Source: an uncultured Clostridia bacterium
GTDB lineage: Bacteria; Bacillota; Clostridia; Christensenellales; UBA1242
Direction: 5' to 3'
DNA length: 64,000 nucleotides
Assembly (NCBI GenBank): GCA_944349515.1
Contig: CALVNE010000003.1
Span: 3,331 to 67,330, forward strand
Part shown: positions 3,929-54,602 of the stretch, in pieces
Layout of the letters: each line of letters opens with the position of its first letter
How positions within the stretch are numbered: position 1 is the first letter of the stretch
Notes under the pieces: model-generated
The model's database searches: none
The model's input: only the letters and a program-made list of their open reading frames with translations
Told to the model about the DNA's origin: nothing
Made by a program: the position numbers and the translations under genes

Positions 3929-4690
3929 ATGATAAATGTCATCATTCCTGTGGTGGATAAGCCACAAGTGTATTTACCTATCCTAAACGAAATTGCTGGG
4001 CGCAAAGATTGTCGTCTTTATATTGGCGCGCTAGAAAAATTTAAAGACGTATCCTTTCCGAAGAACGCTGAGGTCAAGTTTTACAAGGCGGACAGCAAAA
4101 AAGAAGAAATTTTAAACTCCCTTCACGCAATAGAGAAAGAGAGAGGACAGGTGATAATAATTAGGCGGCCGCTCGAGAGTGCCGAATTTAAGGCGCTTAT
4201 TGAAAGTAGGGCGGACATTGCATACCTAAAAAAGCCAAAATCTCGATTTTCCGCATGGTGGGCAAATCTTTGGAAGAAACTTATCAAAAAGATTTTCGCC
4301 TTTTACTACTTTGAGGACATTTCGGCAGTTAAGTTCAATGAAAACACCTTCAATCTTATAAGTTCGCTTACAAACCTCTCATACATCACCCGCATTAACC
4401 GCTTTGTGGGGTTGAAAGAGGAGACAATTTCCTCTAAAAATCGTTCGCCACGGCGAGAGTATAATAGAGCGGGAACATTTTTTAAACTTTTCGGCGCAAT
4501 ATTGTTCTTCGCTCTTATGGTATTTATCTCGGTGTTTATCACGATAAGATATCAACCGGTGTCGATAATGGTGCTTATTTCCATTTTGCTTTGTGTGATT
4601 GGAATTGTTGCGCTGTTTATGGCAATACTTAATTTTGTTCGAACGCTCTATGTGGGCAAACTTAGGCATGGGCGCGCAGAAGAGTGTTAG
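3929..4690 (+). CDS. hypothetical protein, C-terminally membrane-anchored (weakly GT-A-like N-terminus)
   Basis: 253-aa ORF starting directly after the rpiB stop. Two C-terminal TM helices. No catalytic motif recognised. Confidence 0.5.
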   Translation: MINVIIPVVDKPQVYLPILNEIAGRKDCRLYIGALEKFKDVSFPKNAEVKFYKADSKKEEILNSLHAIEKERGQVIIIRRPLESAEFKALIESRADIAYLKKPKSRFSAWWANLWKKLIKKIFAFYYFEDISAVKFNENTFNLISSLTNLSYITRINRFVGLKEETISSKNRSPRREYNRAGTFFKLFGAILFFALMVFISVFITIRYQPVSIMVLISILLCVIGIVALFMAILNFVRTLYVGKLRHGRAEEC

Positions 4691-12352: not shown

Positions 12353-12628
12353 GCGCTGGGATAGATGGGGAGTTAGCGGTGCCCTGTAACCTGCAATCCG
12401 CTATAGCAGGATTGAACGCTTGCCTAGGAGTAATTTGGTTGAAGATGTGCGTAAAATAAGGGCGTTGAAATCAAGGTCTTATGCAATTGGTAACTCTGAA
12501 CCATGTCAGGTCCTGACGGAAGCATCATTAAGGAGATCTATCGATGTGCCATAAGGTAGCTTTGGTGGAGTTTTTGTTCTACGAAACAGTCAGTCTTATT
12601 ATTTCAAAGCATTCTCTCAGCTATCATC
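12353..12628 (+). ncRNA. ffs: signal recognition particle RNA, long Bacillus-type (with Alu domain)
   Basis: Domain IV core CCATGTCAGGTCCTGACGGAAGCATCA. The 5' GGTGCCCTGTAACC.. is an Alu-like region. Own promoter and terminator. Ends are approximate. Confidence 0.85.
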
Positions 12629-13420: not shown

Positions 13421-13612
13421 TTACATCTTTTTCATTTCTTTTTTCATCTTTTCAAGTTTTGGTTCGACCTTGTCTTTCATCTCGTTAATCTCTTTCTTTA
13501 CCGCTTTTTCGCCTTTGTTGACCATGGACTTTGCCTCTTGCGAGTGCTTGTAAAGAAGAGCGCCTGTTATCATGCCTGCACCAAAGCCGAGAAGTGTCAT
13601 TAATTCTTTCAT
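13421..13612 (-). CDS. YtxH-like small membrane-associated protein
   Basis: 63 aa. N-terminal GFGAGMITGALL helix followed by a K/E-rich coiled region. GGGAGGAAGAT precedes the ATG at 13612. Confidence 0.7.
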   Translation of the reverse strand: MKELMTLLGFGAGMITGALLYKHSQEAKSMVNKGEKAVKKEINEMKDKVEPKLEKMKKEMKKM

Positions 13613-13891
13613 ATCTTCCTCCCTATTTATATTTTCTCCAAATTTCGATAAAATATGCAAAACATTGGGACAGACACCAAACTTTTAAAACGCGGACACG
13701 GATATTTAAACATATCCTAACCGCTAAAAGCTTTCTCTTCCCAGTCCTCTTCCCTGTAGGTGATTTTTGATTTATGCTCGCCGGGCAAAGCCCTTCCCCT
13801 CGCAAAATCAAAAATTGATTAAAAGTATGAAAGTCTAGCGCTGTGAGAAAAGTGGTTTTTATTATAGAATGAAATATAATTATTTAAAAAT

Positions 13892-13975
13892 CCATCCCTA
13901 ACTCTTCACTGCGAGCCAACGGCTCGCCTTCACTTTTCACTCTTAACTCCGTTCCGCTAGGAACGGCTCTTTTCT
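13892..13975 (-). repeat. AGTGAAGG-hairpin repeat element (short copy, reverse orientation)
   Basis: The minus strand reads CCGTTCC-TAGC-GGAACGG .. AGTGAAAAGTGAAGG-CGAGCCGTTGGCTCG-CAGTGAAGAGTTAGGGATGG. Confidence 0.8.
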
Positions 13976-17699: not shown

Positions 17700-17962
17700 T
17701 AGTGAAGAGAAGGCATTGCAAACGCAAGGTTTTTGAGTGAAGGGAAGGCGCAATGCCTTCCAGTGAAGGAACGCTAGCACGTTCAGTGAAGGAAAGACTG
17801 CGTCTTTCAGTGAAGGTGAACCGGCAAACGCAGAGCGTTTGAGTGAAGGCGAACCGCCGGTTCACAGTGAAGGCGAGGCGGCGCCTCGCAGTGAAGAGAA
17901 GTCTATCGACTTCTAGTGAAGGCGAACCTTTGGTTCGCAGTTGTGGAAAGTTTTTGAAAGTG
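17700..17962 (+). repeat. AGTGAAGG-hairpin tandem array (9 units plus AGTTGTGG tail)
   Basis: AGTGAAG starts at 17701, 17736, 17762, 17785, 17809, 17842, 17866, 17890 and 17915; AGTTGTGG at 17939. Each interval holds a short palindrome. Confidence 0.95.
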
Positions 17963-18059
17963 CGATAATACTATAAATCTTTTAACAAATGCCAAAATCG
18001 ATTTAAGCAAAAACTTACAATTTTAAATTACAATAAATTTTTTCTTTCTCTAAATCAAT

Positions 18060-18184
18060 CCGCAACTGCGAGGCAGTGCCTCGCCTTCACTGAACGCGTC
18101 AGTGTTCCTTCACTGCAAACCGCAAGGTTTGCCTTCACTGGAAAGATGCAATCTTTCCCTTCACTAAAAAATCTACGATTTTTT
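18060..18184 (-). repeat. AGTGAAGG-hairpin tandem array, reverse orientation (4 units plus tail motif)
   Basis: CCGCAACT at 18060; CCTTCACT at 18084, 18107, 18132 and 18158. The last hairpin AAAAAATC-TAC-GATTTTTT abuts the spoIIIAF AAGGAG. Confidence 0.95.
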
Positions 18185-18195
18185 AAGGAGTTTTT

Positions 18196-18708
18196 ATGAG
18201 CGGAATTTCTGCATGGTTATTGTCAATCACAGGCGTGATACTTTTGTCGGTTTTAAGCGAGTTTATTTTGCCGGAGGGGCAGATAAATAGGTACACCAAA
18301 GTGATTTTTGCCTTTGTTACCATTTTTGTTATCATTTCACCGCTTCCGTCGCTACTAGACAAAGAGATAGACTTTTCTTTCCCTTCCTATGATTCCGCGC
18401 TTCAAGAGGACTATCTTCACGAGATAAACCTCAGCAAGCTCAGCGCCTTGCAAACCGACCTTCAATCCGAACTTGAAAATGCGGGTATTTACAATGTGAG
18501 CATTTCCATTTCGGCGAACGCGTACAGCGAAAATTTGCAGATTTATGGAATTTATGTCGAACTTTGCGATGTGTCATTTTCTGCCGATTTTGAAAATAAA
18601 AATGTTAGTGAGGCAAAGCGAGCAATAGAAGAGATAATTTCATATATGCCAGCGCTTAGTGATGTGCCGATAACGTATGATGTCGACAAACGCGGAGCGT
18701 TTGAGTGA
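18196..18708 (+). CDS. spoIIIAF: stage III sporulation protein AF
   Basis: 170 aa. The N-terminal double TM (..WLLSITGVILLSVLSEFILPEG..YTKVIF..) resembles SpoIIIAF. AAGGAG RBS. Confidence 0.8.
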   Translation: MSGISAWLLSITGVILLSVLSEFILPEGQINRYTKVIFAFVTIFVIISPLPSLLDKEIDFSFPSYDSALQEDYLHEINLSKLSALQTDLQSELENAGIYNVSISISANAYSENLQIYGIYVELCDVSFSADFENKNVSEAKRAIEEIISYMPALSDVPITYDVDKRGAFE

Positions 18709-18811
18709 AGGGAAAGCCTTGCTTTCCAGTAAAGGAATGCCAAAGGCATTCAGTGAAGGGAAACCTGTCGGTTTTCAGTGAAGGCGAACCTTTGGTTCGC
18801 AGTTGCGGAAT
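18687..18811 (+). repeat. AGTGAAGG-hairpin tandem array beginning inside the spoIIIAF 3' end
   Basis: CAAACGC-GGA-GCGTTTG at 18687. AGTGAAGG/AGTAAAGG at 18704, 18728, 18752 and 18777; AGTTGCGG at 18801. Confidence 0.95.
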
Positions 18812-18951
18812 GTGTTAGAGGGCAAAATTTAAAAAATTTCCTCTCAAAAACCAAAGAAAGATTTAGAGTGTGTAAGTCGGGCGTTGATAGGTTTTGTGTA
18901 ATGCTAATTAAAGCATATGACCACTCTAATCAAAACCACTTTATGGTGCCG

Positions 18952-18987
18952 CAGTGAAAAACGAAGAAAGAAAAGTTGTGGAAAAGG
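18952..18987 (+). repeat. solo tail module of the repeat family
   Basis: CAGTGAAAAACGAAGAAAGAAAAGTTGTGGAAAAGG matches the tails at 53596 and 24787 (reverse complement). Confidence 0.7.
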
Positions 18988-19023
18988 CGGAGAGGCGAAA
19001 ACAGCATATTTTAAGGAGTGGAT

Positions 19024-22255: not shown

Positions 22256-23979
22256 AACTAAGTAAACTTGTCGGCGAGCGCTATAAAGAAACGCCAAATG
22301 GAGCACAACTTAAAAGCCACATCTTGCTTCTTCGCGCGGGCTACATAAAGCAGGTGAGCACCGGTATTTTTTCCATGCTTCCACCAGCGCAGAGAGTGAG
22401 CCAAAAAATTCAAAATATCATCCGCGAAGAGATGAACGCCATCGGCGGTCAAGAGGTCTTATTCCCTGTTGTTATGCCAAGGGAACTTTGGGAGATGTCT
22501 GGGCGCTACCAAACCATTCAAGAGGAACTACTCCGCTTTAAAGACAGAACTGGTCACGATATGCTCTTAGGTATGACGCATGAAGAGGCGGCTGTTCACA
22601 TGGTTATGAACACCGTGAAAAGCCACGACGAACTCCCTTGCATGATTTATCAAATTCAAACCAAATATCGTGACGAGGCGCGCCCACGCGGTGGACTTAT
22701 TCGCGTTAGAGAATTTCTTATGAAGGACGCCTACTCCTTTCACACTTCGCAGGAGGATTTGGATAGTTACTACAAAAAAGTCTATGACGCCTACAACAGA
22801 ATCTACAAGCGCATTGGGCTTAAAAACTTCATATCCGTGAAGTCCGACAGCGGCATTATGGGCGGTAAGGTGGCGGATGAGTTTATGCTTGTCACCGACA
22901 GCGGAGAAGATAGGCTTGTGCTGTGCGATAAGTGCGGGTATAAGGCGAACATGGAGGTCGCAAGTGGCGTCAAAACTCCAAACGCAGAATGCGAGATGAA
23001 AGAACTTGAAGAGGTTTTCACAGGTAACGCCAAAACGATTGAAGAACTATGCCACTACCTTGAAATAAAGCCGGAAGAGACCGTCAAGGCGGTGTGCTAT
23101 GTAACAAGCGAGGAAAAACTTGTTGTGGCGTTTCTTCGTGGCGACTATGAGATTAACGAAAAGAAACTAGCAAAACTTTGTAAGAGCGAAATTAAAGTTG
23201 CCGACACCGACAAATTTGGTTTGGTGGCGGGCAATATTGGTTGTGTCAACTTGACCGTGCCAGAGGATGCACTTGTTTTCTATGACACCTCAATTGCGGG
23301 CTTAACAAATTTCGTCACCGGTGCCAACCGTGCAGATTACCACCTAAAGAATGTGTGCGCTTCGCGTGATTTGGCGGGCGTAAGTTATAACGATATTGCG
23401 CTTGTGAAAGAGGGCGATTGTTGCCCTGTGTGCGGGGAAAAATTGAGGCTGACGCGCGGTATTGAGATAGGCAACATCTTCCAACTCGGCACAAAATACA
23501 CCAAAACCATGGGCATGAAGGTCAGCATGCCAAACGGAAGCAGTATGGAGCCAATCATGGGTTGCTATGGCATAGGAATAGGCAGGGCGCTTGCCAGCAT
23601 AATTGAAGAAAAGGGCGATGATAAGGGTATTGTTTGGCCGATGACGGTTGCGCCATGGCAGGTGCATTTCTGCCCACTTCGACTTGACGACGAAAATGTT
23701 TCGGCGGTGGCTGACGAACTCTATAAGAAGATGCTTGACGCTGGCATTGAGGTGCTGTACGATGACCGCATTGTTTCCGCTGGCGTGAAACTCACTGACA
23801 GCGAACTTATGGGCATGCCAATTCGCGTGGTGATTAGCCCTAAAACCATGGCAAACGGCACAGCCGAAGTGACCATGCGCGAAACTGGCGAAACAAACTT
23901 CATTCCTCTTCAAAACCTCCTAAGCGAACTTAAAGCCATAATCGAAGATGAGATAGAAGAAATAAACAAAAATCTTTGA
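22252..23979 (+). CDS. proS: proline--tRNA ligase (bacterial type with INS editing domain)
   Basis: 575 aa. Class II motifs (..FRDE.RPRGGLIRVREF..; ..GCYGIGIGR..). 4-nt overlap with xseB. Confidence 0.95.
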   Translation: MKLSKLVGERYKETPNGAQLKSHILLLRAGYIKQVSTGIFSMLPPAQRVSQKIQNIIREEMNAIGGQEVLFPVVMPRELWEMSGRYQTIQEELLRFKDRTGHDMLLGMTHEEAAVHMVMNTVKSHDELPCMIYQIQTKYRDEARPRGGLIRVREFLMKDAYSFHTSQEDLDSYYKKVYDAYNRIYKRIGLKNFISVKSDSGIMGGKVADEFMLVTDSGEDRLVLCDKCGYKANMEVASGVKTPNAECEMKELEEVFTGNAKTIEELCHYLEIKPEETVKAVCYVTSEEKLVVAFLRGDYEINEKKLAKLCKSEIKVADTDKFGLVAGNIGCVNLTVPEDALVFYDTSIAGLTNFVTGANRADYHLKNVCASRDLAGVSYNDIALVKEGDCCPVCGEKLRLTRGIEIGNIFQLGTKYTKTMGMKVSMPNGSSMEPIMGCYGIGIGRALASIIEEKGDDKGIVWPMTVAPWQVHFCPLRLDDENVSAVADELYKKMLDAGIEVLYDDRIVSAGVKLTDSELMGMPIRVVISPKTMANGTAEVTMRETGETNFIPLQNLLSELKAIIEDEIEEINKNL

Positions 23980-23995
23980 GGACTCAAAGATTTTT
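23968..23995 (+). terminator. 13-bp hairpin AAAAATCTTTGAG-GA-CTCAAAGATTTTT overlapping the proS stop; head of the repeat array
   Basis: Read directly. Stem plus T5. The TGA stop (23977-23979) lies in the left arm. Confidence 0.75.
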
Positions 23996-23996
23996 G

Positions 23997-24123
23997 AGTG
24001 AAGGCAAAAATCACAGATTTTTGCAGTGAAGGCGAGCAAATGCTCGCAGTGAAGGAACGCTGACGCGTTCAGTGAAGGCGAGCCGGTGGCTCGCAGTTGT
24101 GGATGATTTTAGAAAGTGAAGGG
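23997..24123 (+). repeat. AGTGAAGG-hairpin tandem array (4 units plus tail)
   Basis: AGTGAAGG at 23997, 24025, 24048 and 24071. AGTTGTGG at 24095, followed by ATGATTTTAGAAAGTGAAGGG. Confidence 0.95.
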
Positions 24124-24216
24124 TTTGGGAAAGTTTTAAGTTTTTGTTGCATCATAACTTTGTTAGTTTGATTAGATTATAATTCTAAACGGCATCTTAT
24201 TTGAATAAAATATTGT

Positions 24217-24774
24217 ATGAAAAAAAATTCTTTGCGCTGGGCTTTTAAGGTGCTTGTTTTATCCATTTGCCTATCCATTATTTTCAGTTTGTTTTCGCAA
24301 AGTTTACTGCCAACGTTGTCGCCATTTTTCTCGGTCTTTGTGATAATTTTTTTTATTTTTGTGGCGGTGGTGTTCGATATGATTGCCGTTGCCTTCACAA
24401 CAATTAGCGAAGAAAAACTTTTGCCATACAAAGAGGAAAAAGGTTATAATGTGGCGCTGTCACTCTGCAAAAATGCCGACAGAGTGGCGTCGTTTGGCGG
24501 AGATGTGGTGGGCGATATTTGCGGAATTTTGAGCGGTGCCGGCGGTGTAAGTTTGGTTATAAATATGAACATTCAAGACGCCGAACTTAATCTACTTGTG
24601 ACGTGTTTAGTGAGCAGTTTGATTGCGGGAATCACCATTTTCTGCAAGGCGATTATGAAAACCTACGCCCTCGATAATTGCGTTAAAATCGCCCTCAAAA
24701 CCGGCTCGCATTTGGAGTTTAAAAAGAAGAAACAAAGCGCAGAAAAGAAAAACGATAAGGAAAACAAAGTTTAA
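24217..24774 (+). CDS. hypothetical polytopic membrane protein
   Basis: 185-aa ORF with several TM helices and a K-rich tail. No family recognised. Confidence 0.55.
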   Translation: MKKNSLRWAFKVLVLSICLSIIFSLFSQSLLPTLSPFFSVFVIIFFIFVAVVFDMIAVAFTTISEEKLLPYKEEKGYNVALSLCKNADRVASFGGDVVGDICGILSGAGGVSLVINMNIQDAELNLLVTCLVSSLIAGITIFCKAIMKTYALDNCVKIALKTGSHLEFKKKKQSAEKKNDKENKV

Positions 24775-24786
24775 AACCCCGCATTC

Positions 24787-24825
24787 CCTTTTCCACAACT
24801 TTCACTTTTCACTCTTCACTTTATA
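24787..24825 (-). repeat. solo tail module of the repeat family (reverse orientation)
   Basis: The plus strand reads CCCTTTTCCACAACTTTCACTTTTCACTCTTCACTT, the reverse complement of AAGTGAAGAGTGAAAAGTGAAAGTTGTGGAAAAGGG. Confidence 0.8.
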
Positions 24826-27447: not shown

Positions 27448-28107
27448 ATGAGTTTTACTGCACAAGATGTTGCAAAATTAAGACAACAAACCGGCGTTGG
27501 TATGATGGAGTGCAAAAAGGCGCTCACAGAATCCAATGGCGATTTTGAAAAGGCGATTGTTATCCTTCGCGAAAGAGGCTTGAAGGCGGTTGACAAAAAG
27601 CAAAGCAGAATTGCTTCCGAGGGGCTTGTTGCTTCCTATATCCACATGGGTGGAAGAATCGGCGTTTTGGTTGAGGTTAACTGCGAAACCGATTTCGTGG
27701 CTAAGAGCGAAGATTTCCAGGTTTTAGTTAAGGATATTGCTATGCAAATTGCCGCTGCAAACCCTAAATATGTTCGCGAAGAGGAAGTGGACCCAGCAGA
27801 ACTTGAAAAGGAAAAGGAAATTTTGAAGGCGCAAGCGCTTAACGAGGGCAAACCTGCAAGCATCGTTGAAAGAATGATTGAAGGAAGAATTAAAAAGTAT
27901 TATGAGGACGTTTGCCTTTTAAATCAGCCTTTTGTTAAGGATAGCAGTAAAACAATTAAAGATGTCCTAACTGAGGCAACCTTAAAAATTGGCGAGAAGA
28001 TTTCGGTTAGACGTTTTGTTCGTTACGAACTTGGCGAAGGACTTGAAAAAAGAAACGAGAACCTTGCCGAAGAGGTTGCAAAGCAAGTTGCAAGCGTTAA
28101 CAAGTAA
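27448..28107 (+). CDS. tsf: translation elongation factor Ts (short form)
   Basis: 219 aa. ..VAKLRQQTGVGMMECKKAL.., ..IGVLVEVNCETDFVAK.. Confidence 0.95.
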   Translation: MSFTAQDVAKLRQQTGVGMMECKKALTESNGDFEKAIVILRERGLKAVDKKQSRIASEGLVASYIHMGGRIGVLVEVNCETDFVAKSEDFQVLVKDIAMQIAAANPKYVREEEVDPAELEKEKEILKAQALNEGKPASIVERMIEGRIKKYYEDVCLLNQPFVKDSSKTIKDVLTEATLKIGEKISVRRFVRYELGEGLEKRNENLAEEVAKQVASVNK

Positions 28108-28108
28108 G

Positions 28109-28146
28109 AAAAAGGATAAAGCCTAATAGGTTTTATCCTTTTTCTT
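28109..28146 (+). terminator. rho-independent terminator of tsf
   Basis: AAAGGATAAA ... TTTATCCTTT stem with a trailing T-run, 2 nt after the stop. Confidence 0.8.
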
Positions 28147-28292
28147 AGTGAAGGGAAAGACTGCGTCTTTCCAGTGAAGGTGAACCATTGGTTCACAGTG
28201 AAGGCGAGGCGGTGCCTCGCAGTGAAGGGAAATCAAAGATTTCCAGTTGTGGAAGATTTTAGAAAGTGAAGAGTTGTGGTAGGTTAAGAGTG
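28147..28292 (+). repeat. AGTGAAGG-hairpin tandem array (4 units plus full tail)
   Basis: AGTGAAGG at 28147, 28173, 28197 and 28221; AGTTGTGG at 28245. The tail AAGATTTTAGAAAGTGAAGAGTTGTGGTAGG.. runs into the stop of the truncated GT2 gene. Confidence 0.95.
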
Positions 28293-28580
28293 AATATCAT
28301 CTTGGTCACAGCAGGCATAGTAGTCAAATGTTGAAGGAGCATTTTGGATAAGGGTGGCAAAACTTTTCCCGAACCCTAAATTCCCCCTCCCACAAGATAT
28401 ATCGATAGGGAAACCTTTCTTTTTATATTTCTCTAAAATTTGAACAGTCTTATCCGAACTTCCGTCATCGCGCACAAACAGTGTGAGGTTGACGTCTTTT
28501 TGATTAAACACACTATCTAAAAGTTCGCGCAGATATTTTTCACCGTTGTAAGTGCTTAAAAGAACTGCCACGTTATTCAT
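28284..28580 (-). pseudogene. 5' fragment of a family-2 glycosyltransferase gene (truncated just after the DxD motif)
   Basis: MNNVAVLLSTYNGEKYL..VRDDGSSD..CDQDDI then HS-stop. Only 98 aa against roughly 300 expected. AAGGAG RBS before the ATG at 28580. Confidence 0.75.
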
Positions 28581-28653
28581 ATATATCTCCTTTATTTCAA
28601 TAATCATTATATCATTCTCAATATTGTCTTTCAAAGTAATTGCAACAATTTAC

Positions 28654-28686
28654 GAAAAAAGTTGAACGATTATGTTCAACTTTTTT
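28654..28686 (-). terminator. rho-independent terminator of rpmB
   Basis: GTTGAAC-GATTAT-GTTCAAC flanked by A6/T6, directly after the rpmB stop on the minus strand. Confidence 0.75.
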
Positions 28687-53578: not shown

Positions 53579-53632
53579 TGAAAGGCAGAGGCTTTCAGTG
53601 AAAAGAGAAACGTGAAAAGTTGTGGAAGATTG
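53579..53632 (+). repeat. short copy of the repeat family (weak hairpin plus tail)
   Basis: ..GGCTTTCAGTGAAAAGAGAAACGTGAAAAGTTGTGGAAGATT, starting 1 nt after the spoVAE stop. Confidence 0.8.
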
Positions 53633-53676
53633 AGATTATTGATTTTATATAATAAAAATTGTTAATACAAAATGTA

Positions 53677-53738: not shown

Positions 53739-53930
53739 TCTAAGCTTTTCCACAACTTGTAAAACGCAGTCTTTCCTTCACTGCGAGGCTCTATATTTAT
53801 TCACTTTTCACTTTTTATAATTTTACCACAACTTTTCAATTCTTCACGTTTCACCGAAAACCGTTAGGTTTTCTAAAATCTACCACAACTTTTCACGTTT
53901 CACTTTTCACTCAAAAATCTTCGATTTTTG
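53739..53930 (-). repeat. repeat-family array in reverse orientation with three tail modules, starting at the yunB stop
   Basis: The minus strand reads CAAAAATC-GAA-GATTTTTG AGTGAAAAGTGAAACGTGAAAAGTTGTGGTAGATTTTAGAA .. GAAAAGTTGTGGTAAAAT .. CGCAGTGAAGGAAAGACTGCGTTTT..AGTTGTGGAAAAGC. Confidence 0.9.
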
Positions 53931-54602
53931 CTACCCGCTCGGAGCGAGATTTATGATATTGTCACTACCTAAATACACCTCCGGTACTTTACCCGGGAGG
54001 ACGCTTTCGGTGACTAAAAATTCGGTTACGCTGTCAACGGTGGAGGAGTATGTGGGCAGAACAAGGCTGACGTTGGCGTGAAGTTCGATATAAAGCGAGT
54101 GCATGGTTTGATTGATACCGGCGCTGACGAAACTGCTACGGAAGGACGATGTCATGGCGCCAATTTGCACAATTTTAACATTGATTTTCGGCCCTAAACC
54201 CACTAGAAATGGCAAGCCCGTGAAGGTGCCAAGCGCGATATCTACGCCTTCCTTTCCCATGCGGTCGAGGTAGACTTGCGCAACCTGGTAAAATCTACGC
54301 GCCAAATTGTTCACAAGCACGGTGTCAACAGCGATAAGCGAAATGTCGCCGTGAGCGTCATACGAAATTTCCACGATGTCCTCATAAGTCACATTCTGTT
54401 CGGCGATGACGTCATAGACAGCGTCACTCACGGCGGAGGTTGAGAGGGTGTAGATGAGGGCGCGTGTGGTCTCTTTAACGACCGGGTTTACTACATAAAA
54501 AATGTAAAGAATAATCGACACGAGGATAAGAAAAAGAAAGGTGAGCGCAATGTTAATCCTTCTTTTACGCGATTTTCTTTGTAAATAGCAGAGTTTTTTC
54601 AC
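53931..54602 (-). CDS. yunB: sporulation protein YunB
   Basis: 223 aa. N-terminal TM. ..DIALGTFTGLPFLVGLGPKI.V.. and ..SSFRSSFVSAGINQT.H.LY.. are typical YunB motifs. Confidence 0.85.
   Translation of the reverse strand: MKKLCYLQRKSRKRRINIALTFLFLILVSIILYIFYVVNPVVKETTRALIYTLSTSAVSDAVYDVIAEQNVTYEDIVEISYDAHGDISLIAVDTVLVNNLARRFYQVAQVYLDRMGKEGVDIALGTFTGLPFLVGLGPKINVKIVQIGAMTSSFRSSFVSAGINQTMHSLYIELHANVSLVLPTYSSTVDSVTEFLVTESVLPGKVPEVYLGSDNIINLAPSG

Follow-up and report, generated by a model that had tools for sequence, protein, structure and literature searches.

The stretch of DNA analysed here, called the window throughout, comprises 64,000 nt of contig CALVNE010000003.1 from an uncultured Clostridia bacterium. 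It represents core chromosome, carrying obg, gap, a signal recognition particle (SRP) RNA, the spoIIIA operon, proS, rpsB, tsf, rpmB, frr, uppS and cdsA as well as nusA, infB, truB, efp, spoVA, yunB and tRNA synthetase genes. Scattered among these genes are approximately ten arrays of short hairpins spaced by the heptamer AGTGAAG and ending in a conserved tail. No transposase or integrase was found in Pfam scans of about 40 window proteins. The architecture of the repeats is unusual, combining invariant heptamer linkers, hairpins conserved in structure only and a conserved tail; that they form a real family is well supported, and what we infer concerns their function. The array that an original prediction, made from the letters of the window, had singled out (hereafter the flagged array) is situated in the tsf-rpmB spacer among the following features.

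28105 to 28146, plus strand: intrinsic terminator of tsf, a 20-bp stem and then TTTTTCTT, directly abutting the flagged array

28147 to 28292, plus strand: the flagged array, four perfect hairpins spaced by AGTGAAG and then the conserved tail; the hairpins are, in order, GGAAAGAC-TGC-GTCTTTCC, GTGAACC-ATT-GGTTCAC, GCGAGGC-GGT-GCCTCGC and GGAAATC-AAA-GATTTCC, and the tail reads AGTTGTGG AAGATTTTAGAA AGTGAAG AGTTGTGG TAGGTTAAG AGTGAAT

28284 to 28634, minus strand: truncated glycosyltransferase-2 open reading frame (ORF) of 116 aa, its reading frame ending within the array tail

The four hairpin units of the flagged array span 28147-28244, and every sequence and coordinate quoted for them by the original prediction, as well as for each cross-referenced locus, is correct. 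These include the related cores at 17874 and 28205, at 24079 and 13911 (minus strand) and at 17923 and 18785, together with the exact recurrence of cores between 17792 and 28155 and between 17923 and 18785. The linker string AGTGAAGG occurs 25 times in the 64 kb, against an expectation of 1.38 +/- 1.10 (maximum 4) from dinucleotide-preserving shuffles. Its final G forms the closing G-C pair of the hairpin with the C preceding the next AGTG in 27 of 28 units, thus the unpaired linker is the heptamer AGTGAAG. The prediction of a constant single-stranded linker holds for both its constancy and its unpaired state but not for its length, which is 7 nt rather than 8-9. Identical arrays were recovered in six independent metagenome assemblies and therefore are not assembly artefacts. 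A literature search with the motif string returned primers only.

The claim that the cores differ in sequence yet remain self-complementary through compensatory changes is borne out by several counts, for which units were picked by their flanks only and not by core sequence. Among the 28 window units, of which 27 have distinct cores, the outer seven core positions form on average 5.86 Watson-Crick pairs, compared with 2.7 in dinucleotide-shuffled cores and 3.4 when the 3' arms are permuted among units; none of 500 shuffles reached the observed value. The cores are thus neither at the shuffle level of self-complementarity nor identical copies of one another. Pair counting was carried out on an alignment (A1) of 28 distinct units with 17-nt cores, taken from the window and its relatives. 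In A1, 97.4% of cells are paired, changes on both sides occur at all seven pairs, and doubly changed cells number 58, shuffles giving 18 +/- 4. Sliding the partner by 1-3 columns makes pairing fall to 28-46%, the shuffled and slid controls together ranging over 28-71%. Each stem position displays between two and five pair types.

A stepwise compensatory series of the textbook kind, from U-A through C.A to C-G, can be read from G-UGAACC/GGUUCA-C at 28173, by way of the C.A mismatch in G-CGAACC/GGUUCA-C at 17842, to G-CGAACC/GGUUCG-C at 17915 and 18777. The 5' arms are always purine-rich, with the consensus G-N-R-A-R-N-C. Mismatches within the stems comprise six G.T and six A.C, a sample size at which the test for RNA-versus-DNA asymmetry is uninformative. 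Folds of the flagged region as RNA and as DNA (z = -6.3 and -9.9) show the tsf terminator and, after it, four hairpins that form independently and have 7 unpaired nt between them. Sequences from elsewhere that match the same flanks (about 50 in metagenome, 19 in viral and most in genome sequences) enclose non-hairpin cores with stems of at most 4 bp. Structural constraint with compensatory change thus acts on the hairpins and each unit folds alone; covariation and folds together support the inference of a conserved structure with free sequence, separated by a constant single-stranded linker. The family therefore splits two signals, a linker and tail conserved in sequence and hairpins conserved in shape only.

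Comparison of all loci divides the element into three modules, namely a heptamer-repeat head, hairpins and a tail. The head is a run of direct repeats of a purine-rich heptamer, AGTGAAG, AGTGAAA or the degenerate AGTKAAG and AGTTAAG/AGCGAAG, with A-rich AAAGAAA in some copies; a hairpin, either CAAAAATC-NNN-GATTTTTG or CAAACGC-NNN-GCGTTTG in type, often stands before it. Between successive heptamers stand 0-9 hairpins per array, each G-C closed with a stem of 6-9 bp and a loop of 3-6 nt, giving a module of about 24 nt. The tail of about 20 nt, AGTTGTGGAWGATTTTAGAA, has the general form AGTTGTGG-A-W-R-ATTTTAGAA, and conservation ends beyond it. Empty arrays without hairpins, of the form (AGTGAAR)3 AGTTGTGG, are present at 24785-24820 (minus strand), 53597-53625 (plus strand) and about 53890-53912 (minus strand). 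Decayed half-hairpins occur at 53740-53931 and in one related contig, L281 (sequences outside the window being cited by L numbers where they need to be told apart).

Within any one array all units are in direct orientation, and only whole arrays are sometimes mutually inverted (17701-18184). Arrays at different loci share a common order of unit types, which begins with GGAAxxC and ends with GCGAxxC or GAAAGGC, and certain units are identical, so whole arrays rather than single units alone are homologous. A covariance-model search, with the model built from A1, found no solitary units outside arrays in the window. The element also exists in an A-rich form, in which (AAAGAAA/AATAAGA)n precedes the same AGTTGTGG tail. 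This second form is found at 18953-18990 in the window and at L326 about 4030-4180 (minus strand), L149 11745-11790, L147 5886-5935, L331 7895-7950 and in L098; it is present even in relatives without AGTGAAG-hairpin arrays.

The remaining arrays of the window are given below in order along the sequence.

13878 to 13966, minus strand: array in which one hairpin, GCGAGCC-GTT-GGCTCGC, stands between heptamers; its tail is the variant AGTTAGGGATGGATTTTT and its head hairpin is CCGTTCC-TAGC-GGAACGG, and it is located upstream of a small minus-strand gene

17701 to 17962, plus strand: longest array, placed just behind spoIIIAE, with nine units and tail AGTTGTGGAAAGTTTTTGAAAGTG; a CAAACGC-AGA-GCGTTTG hairpin interrupts one unit, and the array is identical in L373, L377 and L378

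18040 to 18184, minus strand: inverted array of four units, tail AGTTGCGG and head hairpin AAAAAATC-GTA-GATTTTTT; abuts the spoIIIAF ribosome-binding site

18687 to 18820, plus strand: array with head hairpin CAAACGC-GGA-GCGTTTG, four units and tail AGTTGCGG; over the spoIIIAF stop

18953 to 18990, plus strand: degenerate mini-array without hairpins, AGTGAAA AACGAAG AAAGAAA AGTTGTGG; upstream of spoIIIAG

23967 to 24122, plus strand: array after proS; its 13-bp head hairpin is A/T-rich and resembles a terminator, and four units and then the tail AGTTGTGGATGATTTTAGAA AGTGAAG come after it

24785 to 24820, minus strand: empty array, AGTGAAG AGTGAAA AGTGAAA GTTGTGG, without hairpins

53580 to 53637, plus strand: a unit-type hairpin, GAAAGGC-AGA-GGCTTTC, and then an empty array, AGTGAAA AGAGAAA CGTGAAA AGTTGTGG AAGATT; after a SpoVAC/SpoVAEB-domain gene

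53740 to 53931, minus strand: three decayed or empty arrays after yunB, with half-hairpins (GCCTCGC alone; GAAAGACTGCGTTTTACA) and three AGTTGTGG tails

Inside the spoIIIA operon, arrays 17701-17962 and 18040-18184 have their tails turned towards each other on either side of a 100-nt A/T-rich spacer, in a manner similar to REPINs (paired repetitive extragenic palindromes), and together they can fold into a long imperfect hairpin. Three assemblies span this arrangement and are identical over it, with partial contigs in agreement. The spoIIIAE-spoIIIAF gap measures only about 40 nt in other species. The next array itself provides spoIIIAF with its last codons and its stop, namely through the head hairpin and the TGA of the first AGTGAAG (18706-18708), and the spoIIIAF ORF ends differently in related species. 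In L041 an ORF likewise ends in the second heptamer of an array.

Of the 23 arrays across the family for which an upstream ORF could be identified, 18 (about 78%) point the same way as that ORF, and 13 of these 18 overlap its stop codon or start no more than 60 nt from it. The other five are antisense. The unit hairpins have no U-tract, and a terminator scan did not call them in the sense orientation. Hairpins qualifying as terminators comprise only head hairpins, such as that at 23967-23996, and the tsf terminator at 28105-28146.

Information on the distribution of the family was obtained from related genomes and from sequence collections. The window is close to Candidatus Caccovivens faecavium (DVLK01), its ProS being 96% identical to that of this species. 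Contigs of run ERR4096359 match the window with 100% identity, and run ERR4096565 also contains DNA of the window's own species. Linker and tail recur unchanged, with other hairpins, in the uncultured Clostridia metagenome-assembled genomes (MAGs) E10__bin241 (CALWEZ), E14__bin171 (CALWGA), BRZ_PH__bin59 (CALVZE) and BRZ_DN__bin59, while L146 and L147 carry the variant linker AGCGAAG. More distant relatives display no such arrays within the syntenic 21 kb, and a de novo search in them for analogous arrays with other linkers gave only chance A/T-rich hairpin pairs. Phage and plasmid BLAST searches gave no match. A scan of a metagenome collection found a single contig carrying the family (L219), and a scan of a viral collection found none. 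No Rfam 15 model matched the arrays at the gathering threshold, permissive scans of the arrays giving matches at chance level only. A first genome-wide pattern scan was swamped by ordinary tandem repeats; it was used as a negative control and led to two related MAGs. Exact-protein look-ups with ProS and the SpoVAC/SpoVAEB-domain protein gave no match. The repeat family is previously undescribed and specific to the lineage of Candidatus Caccovivens-like gut Clostridia. Studies of dispersed palindromic repeats are plentiful for Proteobacteria and streptococci, but scarce for gut Clostridia.

Arrays coincide with synteny breaks and rearrangement junctions, as seen from comparisons made within the species at 98-99% nucleotide identity. 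The flagged array sits at such a junction, being part of a 562-bp segment (28119-28680) that is absent from the same-species sequences L141-L144 and that also holds the truncated glycosyltransferase (GT2) ORF. L141, which has no array here, carries a different hairpin at the terminator position with the same flanks. The spans compared at tsf-rpmB were 28119-28680 of the window, L141 3673-3690 and L146 16297-17636. A clean insertion with target-site duplication was considered for the 562-bp difference and rejected, the ends displaying CTTTTT microhomology only. Other species carry other genes in the tsf-rpmB spacer, which is therefore a variable hot spot rather than the site of a clean insertion; in Ca. 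Caccovivens faecavium it holds a different gene, of 391 aa, on the other strand.

Strains whose neighbouring 185-aa protein is identical differ in the units of the array after proS. These units are [GCGAGC][GAACGC][GCGAGCC] in the window and L232 and [GCGAGC][GGAAGTC][GAAAACC] in L233, L235 and L231, and L234 ends in [GCGAACC]; the tails and upstream DNA of this array vary between strains as well. The 185-aa gene, between proS and an ArsP_2 gene (window 24203-24713; L150 11761-12271), is flanked in the window by oppositely oriented arrays and has the reverse orientation in one related species. At the L141 site orthologous to the empty array at 24785-24820 stands an array with two hairpins, and synteny breaks beyond it. 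Arrays of the spoIIIAE-AF-AG region are identical in six independent assemblies save for two point differences. In species diverged by about 20-25% at the nucleotide level, array relics persist at corresponding sites, and array positions are otherwise not conserved between species. The family would thus be mostly stable, with occasional exchange or loss of units by recombination or by slippage at identical linkers. This polymorphism within the species, the tail module, the empty heptamer-only arrays and the homology of whole arrays had been missed by the original prediction. Same-strain short-read contigs break inside arrays (the end of L145 at window 17813, the start of L232 at 24049 and the starts of L374-L376), thus the arrays fragment assemblies of this lineage. 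As marks of indel and rearrangement hot spots, they bear on MAG quality and strain typing in an uncultured lineage.

Several known repeat systems share features with the family. Repetitive extragenic palindromic (REP) sequences and the bacterial interspersed mosaic elements (BIMEs) of Proteobacteria are likewise short G+C-rich hairpins in intergenic regions, often within operons or at the 3' ends of genes; they form clusters with constant linkers and differ among strains, and the roles proposed for REPs are mRNA 3'-end protection and termination. Unlike them, the present arrays have direct tandem units rather than units of alternating orientation, an invariant heptamer linker that also occurs as plain tandem repeats, a conserved 20-nt tail and a host within the Clostridia, and their palindromes are conserved in shape but not in sequence. 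The two REP superfamilies are defined by a GTAG or CGTC tetranucleotide tag at the foot of the hairpin (PMC3733652). Here the tag is absent: one strand has the flanks ...GTGAAG|G-stem-C|AGTG, and the other has CACT|G-stem-C|CTTCAC. On the three features tested, namely the tag, a conserved palindrome and alternating orientation, the family is no member of REP/BIME.

BOX elements of Streptococcus pneumoniae, boxA-(boxB)n-boxC, offer a similar layout of head, variable internal repeats and tail, and are intergenic, hairpin-forming and variable in copy number. Their modules, however, are of 45-59 nt and conserved in sequence, compared with about 24 nt and structure only here, and there is no sequence relation. 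The TAACTGA heptanucleotide repeats of Beggiatoaceae are, like the short tandemly repeated repetitive (STRR) sequences of cyanobacteria, contiguous and intergenic (PMC4679880). As unstructured tandem heptamers in 2-6 copies per set they resemble the empty arrays (AGTGAAR)3, but they have a different heptamer, no interspersed hairpins or tail, and lie mostly just upstream of start codons. The hairpin-free arrays alone fit a definition by contiguous heptamers, which the hairpin-bearing arrays exceed.

Integron attC sites are, like these hairpins, conserved in secondary structure and not in sequence, and serve as recombination sites. They are, however, imperfect palindromes of 57-141 nt with R''/L''/L'/R' boxes and extrahelical bases, flank cassettes and need IntI, whereas the hairpins here are perfect, of 16-21 nt, in a window with no integrase. 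CRISPR loci also alternate a constant repeat with a variable segment in strain-variable arrays. Their repeats of 23-50 nt, unique non-palindromic spacers and nearby cas genes contrast with the 7-nt repeat and the many small loci seen here, where the spacers are recurrent palindromes of 13-21 nt from a small repertoire and no cas domains are found in the window; the Rfam CRISPR match to the arrays is at chance level, scoring 14.7 bits (E = 6) where the gathering score is 35. A reading of the tail as a sigma-70 promoter (-35 TTGTGG) was rejected, the -10 being not consistently present. Intrastrand triplex, Shine-Dalgarno mimic, catabolite-responsive element (cre) and CodY box were dismissed by inspection of the sequence as poor matches.

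The best explanation, given slightly better than even confidence, is a family of modular, non-coding palindromic repeats comparable in their working to REP/BIME or BOX elements, though belonging to neither, with structure-constrained RNA hairpins at 3' ends and spread by recombination. The constraint on the hairpins would act on their single-stranded form. Since about 78% of the arrays sit just behind a gene in the sense orientation, the selected property may be hairpin folding in the transcript, as position and the REP analogy suggest. By the same analogy, the hairpins probably act as 3'-end RNA structures and could serve, in a beads-on-a-string manner, as a barrier to 3'-to-5' exonucleases as well as a transcript-end or insulator structure. 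Copies internal to the spoIIIA operon would certainly be transcribed if that operon is one transcript. Ectopic recombination or gene conversion, together with slippage at identical linkers, may spread and reshuffle the family, presumably with no dedicated transposase involved. The original prediction had likewise offered stacked 3'-UTR stabiliser or terminator hairpins as one of three functions, with which the position of the arrays is compatible, while the absence of U-tracts, the placing of some arrays after a strong terminator and the five antisense arrays speak against it.

The last two points, with others, weigh against the explanation as a whole. A strong terminator precedes the flagged array, so little read-through RNA may reach its hairpins, and the antisense arrays face their neighbouring genes the wrong way. 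The equal numbers of G.T and A.C mismatches, few as they are, lack the wobble excess expected under selection on sense RNA. Orientation bias could equally reflect the direction of replication, most genes here being on one strand. Exact conservation of AGTGAAG and the tail across about 20-25% divergence hints at a trans-acting reader, and template-switch (quasi-palindrome) correction could maintain complementarity of the arms without selection.

That last process underlies the alternative that survives best, although it too appears rather unlikely, in which the hairpins are neutral or selfish, their arms being restored by intrastrand template switching (quasi-palindrome correction) and the arrays being kept by slippage and gene conversion. 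The balance of mismatches carries no RNA signature, both orientations occur, decayed half-hairpins and empty arrays exist, and identical units at distant loci point to copying, all of which would suit such a process. It accounts less well for purine-rich 5' arms and a fixed G-C closing pair kept across species, for the orientation bias relative to upstream genes, and for the persistence of arrays at orthologous sites despite about 20-25% nucleotide divergence.

The original prediction had also suggested REP/BIME-like elements recognised by a REP-associated tyrosine transposase (RAYT), and REP/BIME remains the best analogy. As true REP/RAYT elements, the units or arrays would be moved by a Y1 (HUH) IS200/IS605-like transposase reading the hairpin together with the CAGTGAAG head on single-stranded DNA. 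A hairpin beside a conserved single-stranded motif, asymmetric defined ends without terminal inverted repeats, presence/absence and unit turnover within the species, and the strand bias of the arrays would all be expected. The reading is nonetheless judged improbable. The GTAG/CGTC tag (PMC3733652) is missing, no palindrome is conserved and units are direct rather than alternating; RAYTs read a specific imperfect hairpin, whereas the hairpin sequences here are variable; and the spoIIIA-locus arrays are identical in six assemblies. A tblastn search with IS200 and IS608 TnpA queries, of limited sensitivity, gave no match to a RAYT/Y1 gene in the window and about 750 kb of related DNA, in keeping with the Pfam result for transposases among the window proteins.

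A factor reading the heptamer seems doubtful by a wider measure, be it a double-stranded DNA binder of heptad repeats (omega-repressor-like) or, in the manner of CsrB/RsmZ, an RNA-binding protein or a small-RNA sponge. The omega repressor of inc18 plasmids binds WATCACW heptads. AGTGAAG may resemble WGTGATW, the reverse complement of that heptad. Linker and tail are invariant across species while the hairpins vary, and contiguous heptamer runs without hairpins exist, as such a factor would favour. No candidate binder was identified, however. CsrB/RsmZ RNAs come from one or a few conserved genes, each with its own promoter and terminator, and show the GGA binding motif in their hairpin loops. 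The sponge, the third function originally proposed, is not supported, given about ten loci in 64 kb in both orientations without a promoter or terminator of their own, positions not conserved between species, variable loops with the constant motif placed between the hairpins, and the lack of both a GGA-in-loop pattern and an Rfam match.

The conservation of the linker may alternatively be due to arrays being written or edited by a sequence-specific machine, e.g. a single-stranded DNA recombinase or nuclease, that reads AGTGAAG and inserts, deletes or swaps single hairpin cassettes. This is a long shot. If true, the machine would explain the conservation of linker and tail, the replacement of whole units between strains and the coincidence with rearrangement junctions, and the result would be a new hairpin-cassette array with attC-like recognition of shape, as in integrons, and a CRISPR-like layout.

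Least probable of all are stacked intrinsic terminators with transcription stop as the primary function, for although the arrays stand behind stop codons and the head hairpins CAAAAATC-NNN-GATTTTTG carry a T-run, the unit hairpins are followed by AGTGAAG and not by a U-tract, none is called in the sense orientation, the tsf array comes after a complete terminator, and termination at the three arrays inside the spoIIIA operon would cut off the downstream genes. Whether hairpins are kept by RNA-level selection, DNA-level recognition or templated repair is a question raised by REP-like elements in general, for which the present structure-constrained family offers a natural test bed.

Additional elements were noted in and around the arrays. 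Of the Rfam families, only the bacterial large SRP RNA (12356-12620, plus strand; 153.5 bits) exceeds its threshold in the window. The span 13620-13905 (minus strand) is occupied by a structured element that exists in multiple copies of about 170-230 nt, often beside hairpin arrays. Further copies are located at L041 2343-2574, L147 6011-6186 and 419-571, L272 2219-2448, L148 4275-4458, L124 6518-6670, L123 2092-2254 and L219 4675-4825. The RNAalifold structure has two helices comprising 30 pairs, of which 12 show compensatory changes; the conserved unpaired stretches are AAAATCAC..ACAGGGAAGAGGAYTG and GTAGCGGTTAG, and there is no Rfam match. In the window the element precedes an ORF of 63 aa (13421-13612, minus strand), but the downstream gene is not constant. 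It is a candidate for a new small RNA or leader, or for a miniature inverted-repeat transposable element.

Another small repeat family contains GCTGTCGAAACATCTCA, which includes the Spo0A-box-like TGTCGAA, and ...TCGACTACGCTCAGGATGACA. Its sites are L146 11800-11930, L147 11800-11990 (downstream of proS) and L150 12330-12420, and it fills an intergenic site that holds a hairpin array in the window.

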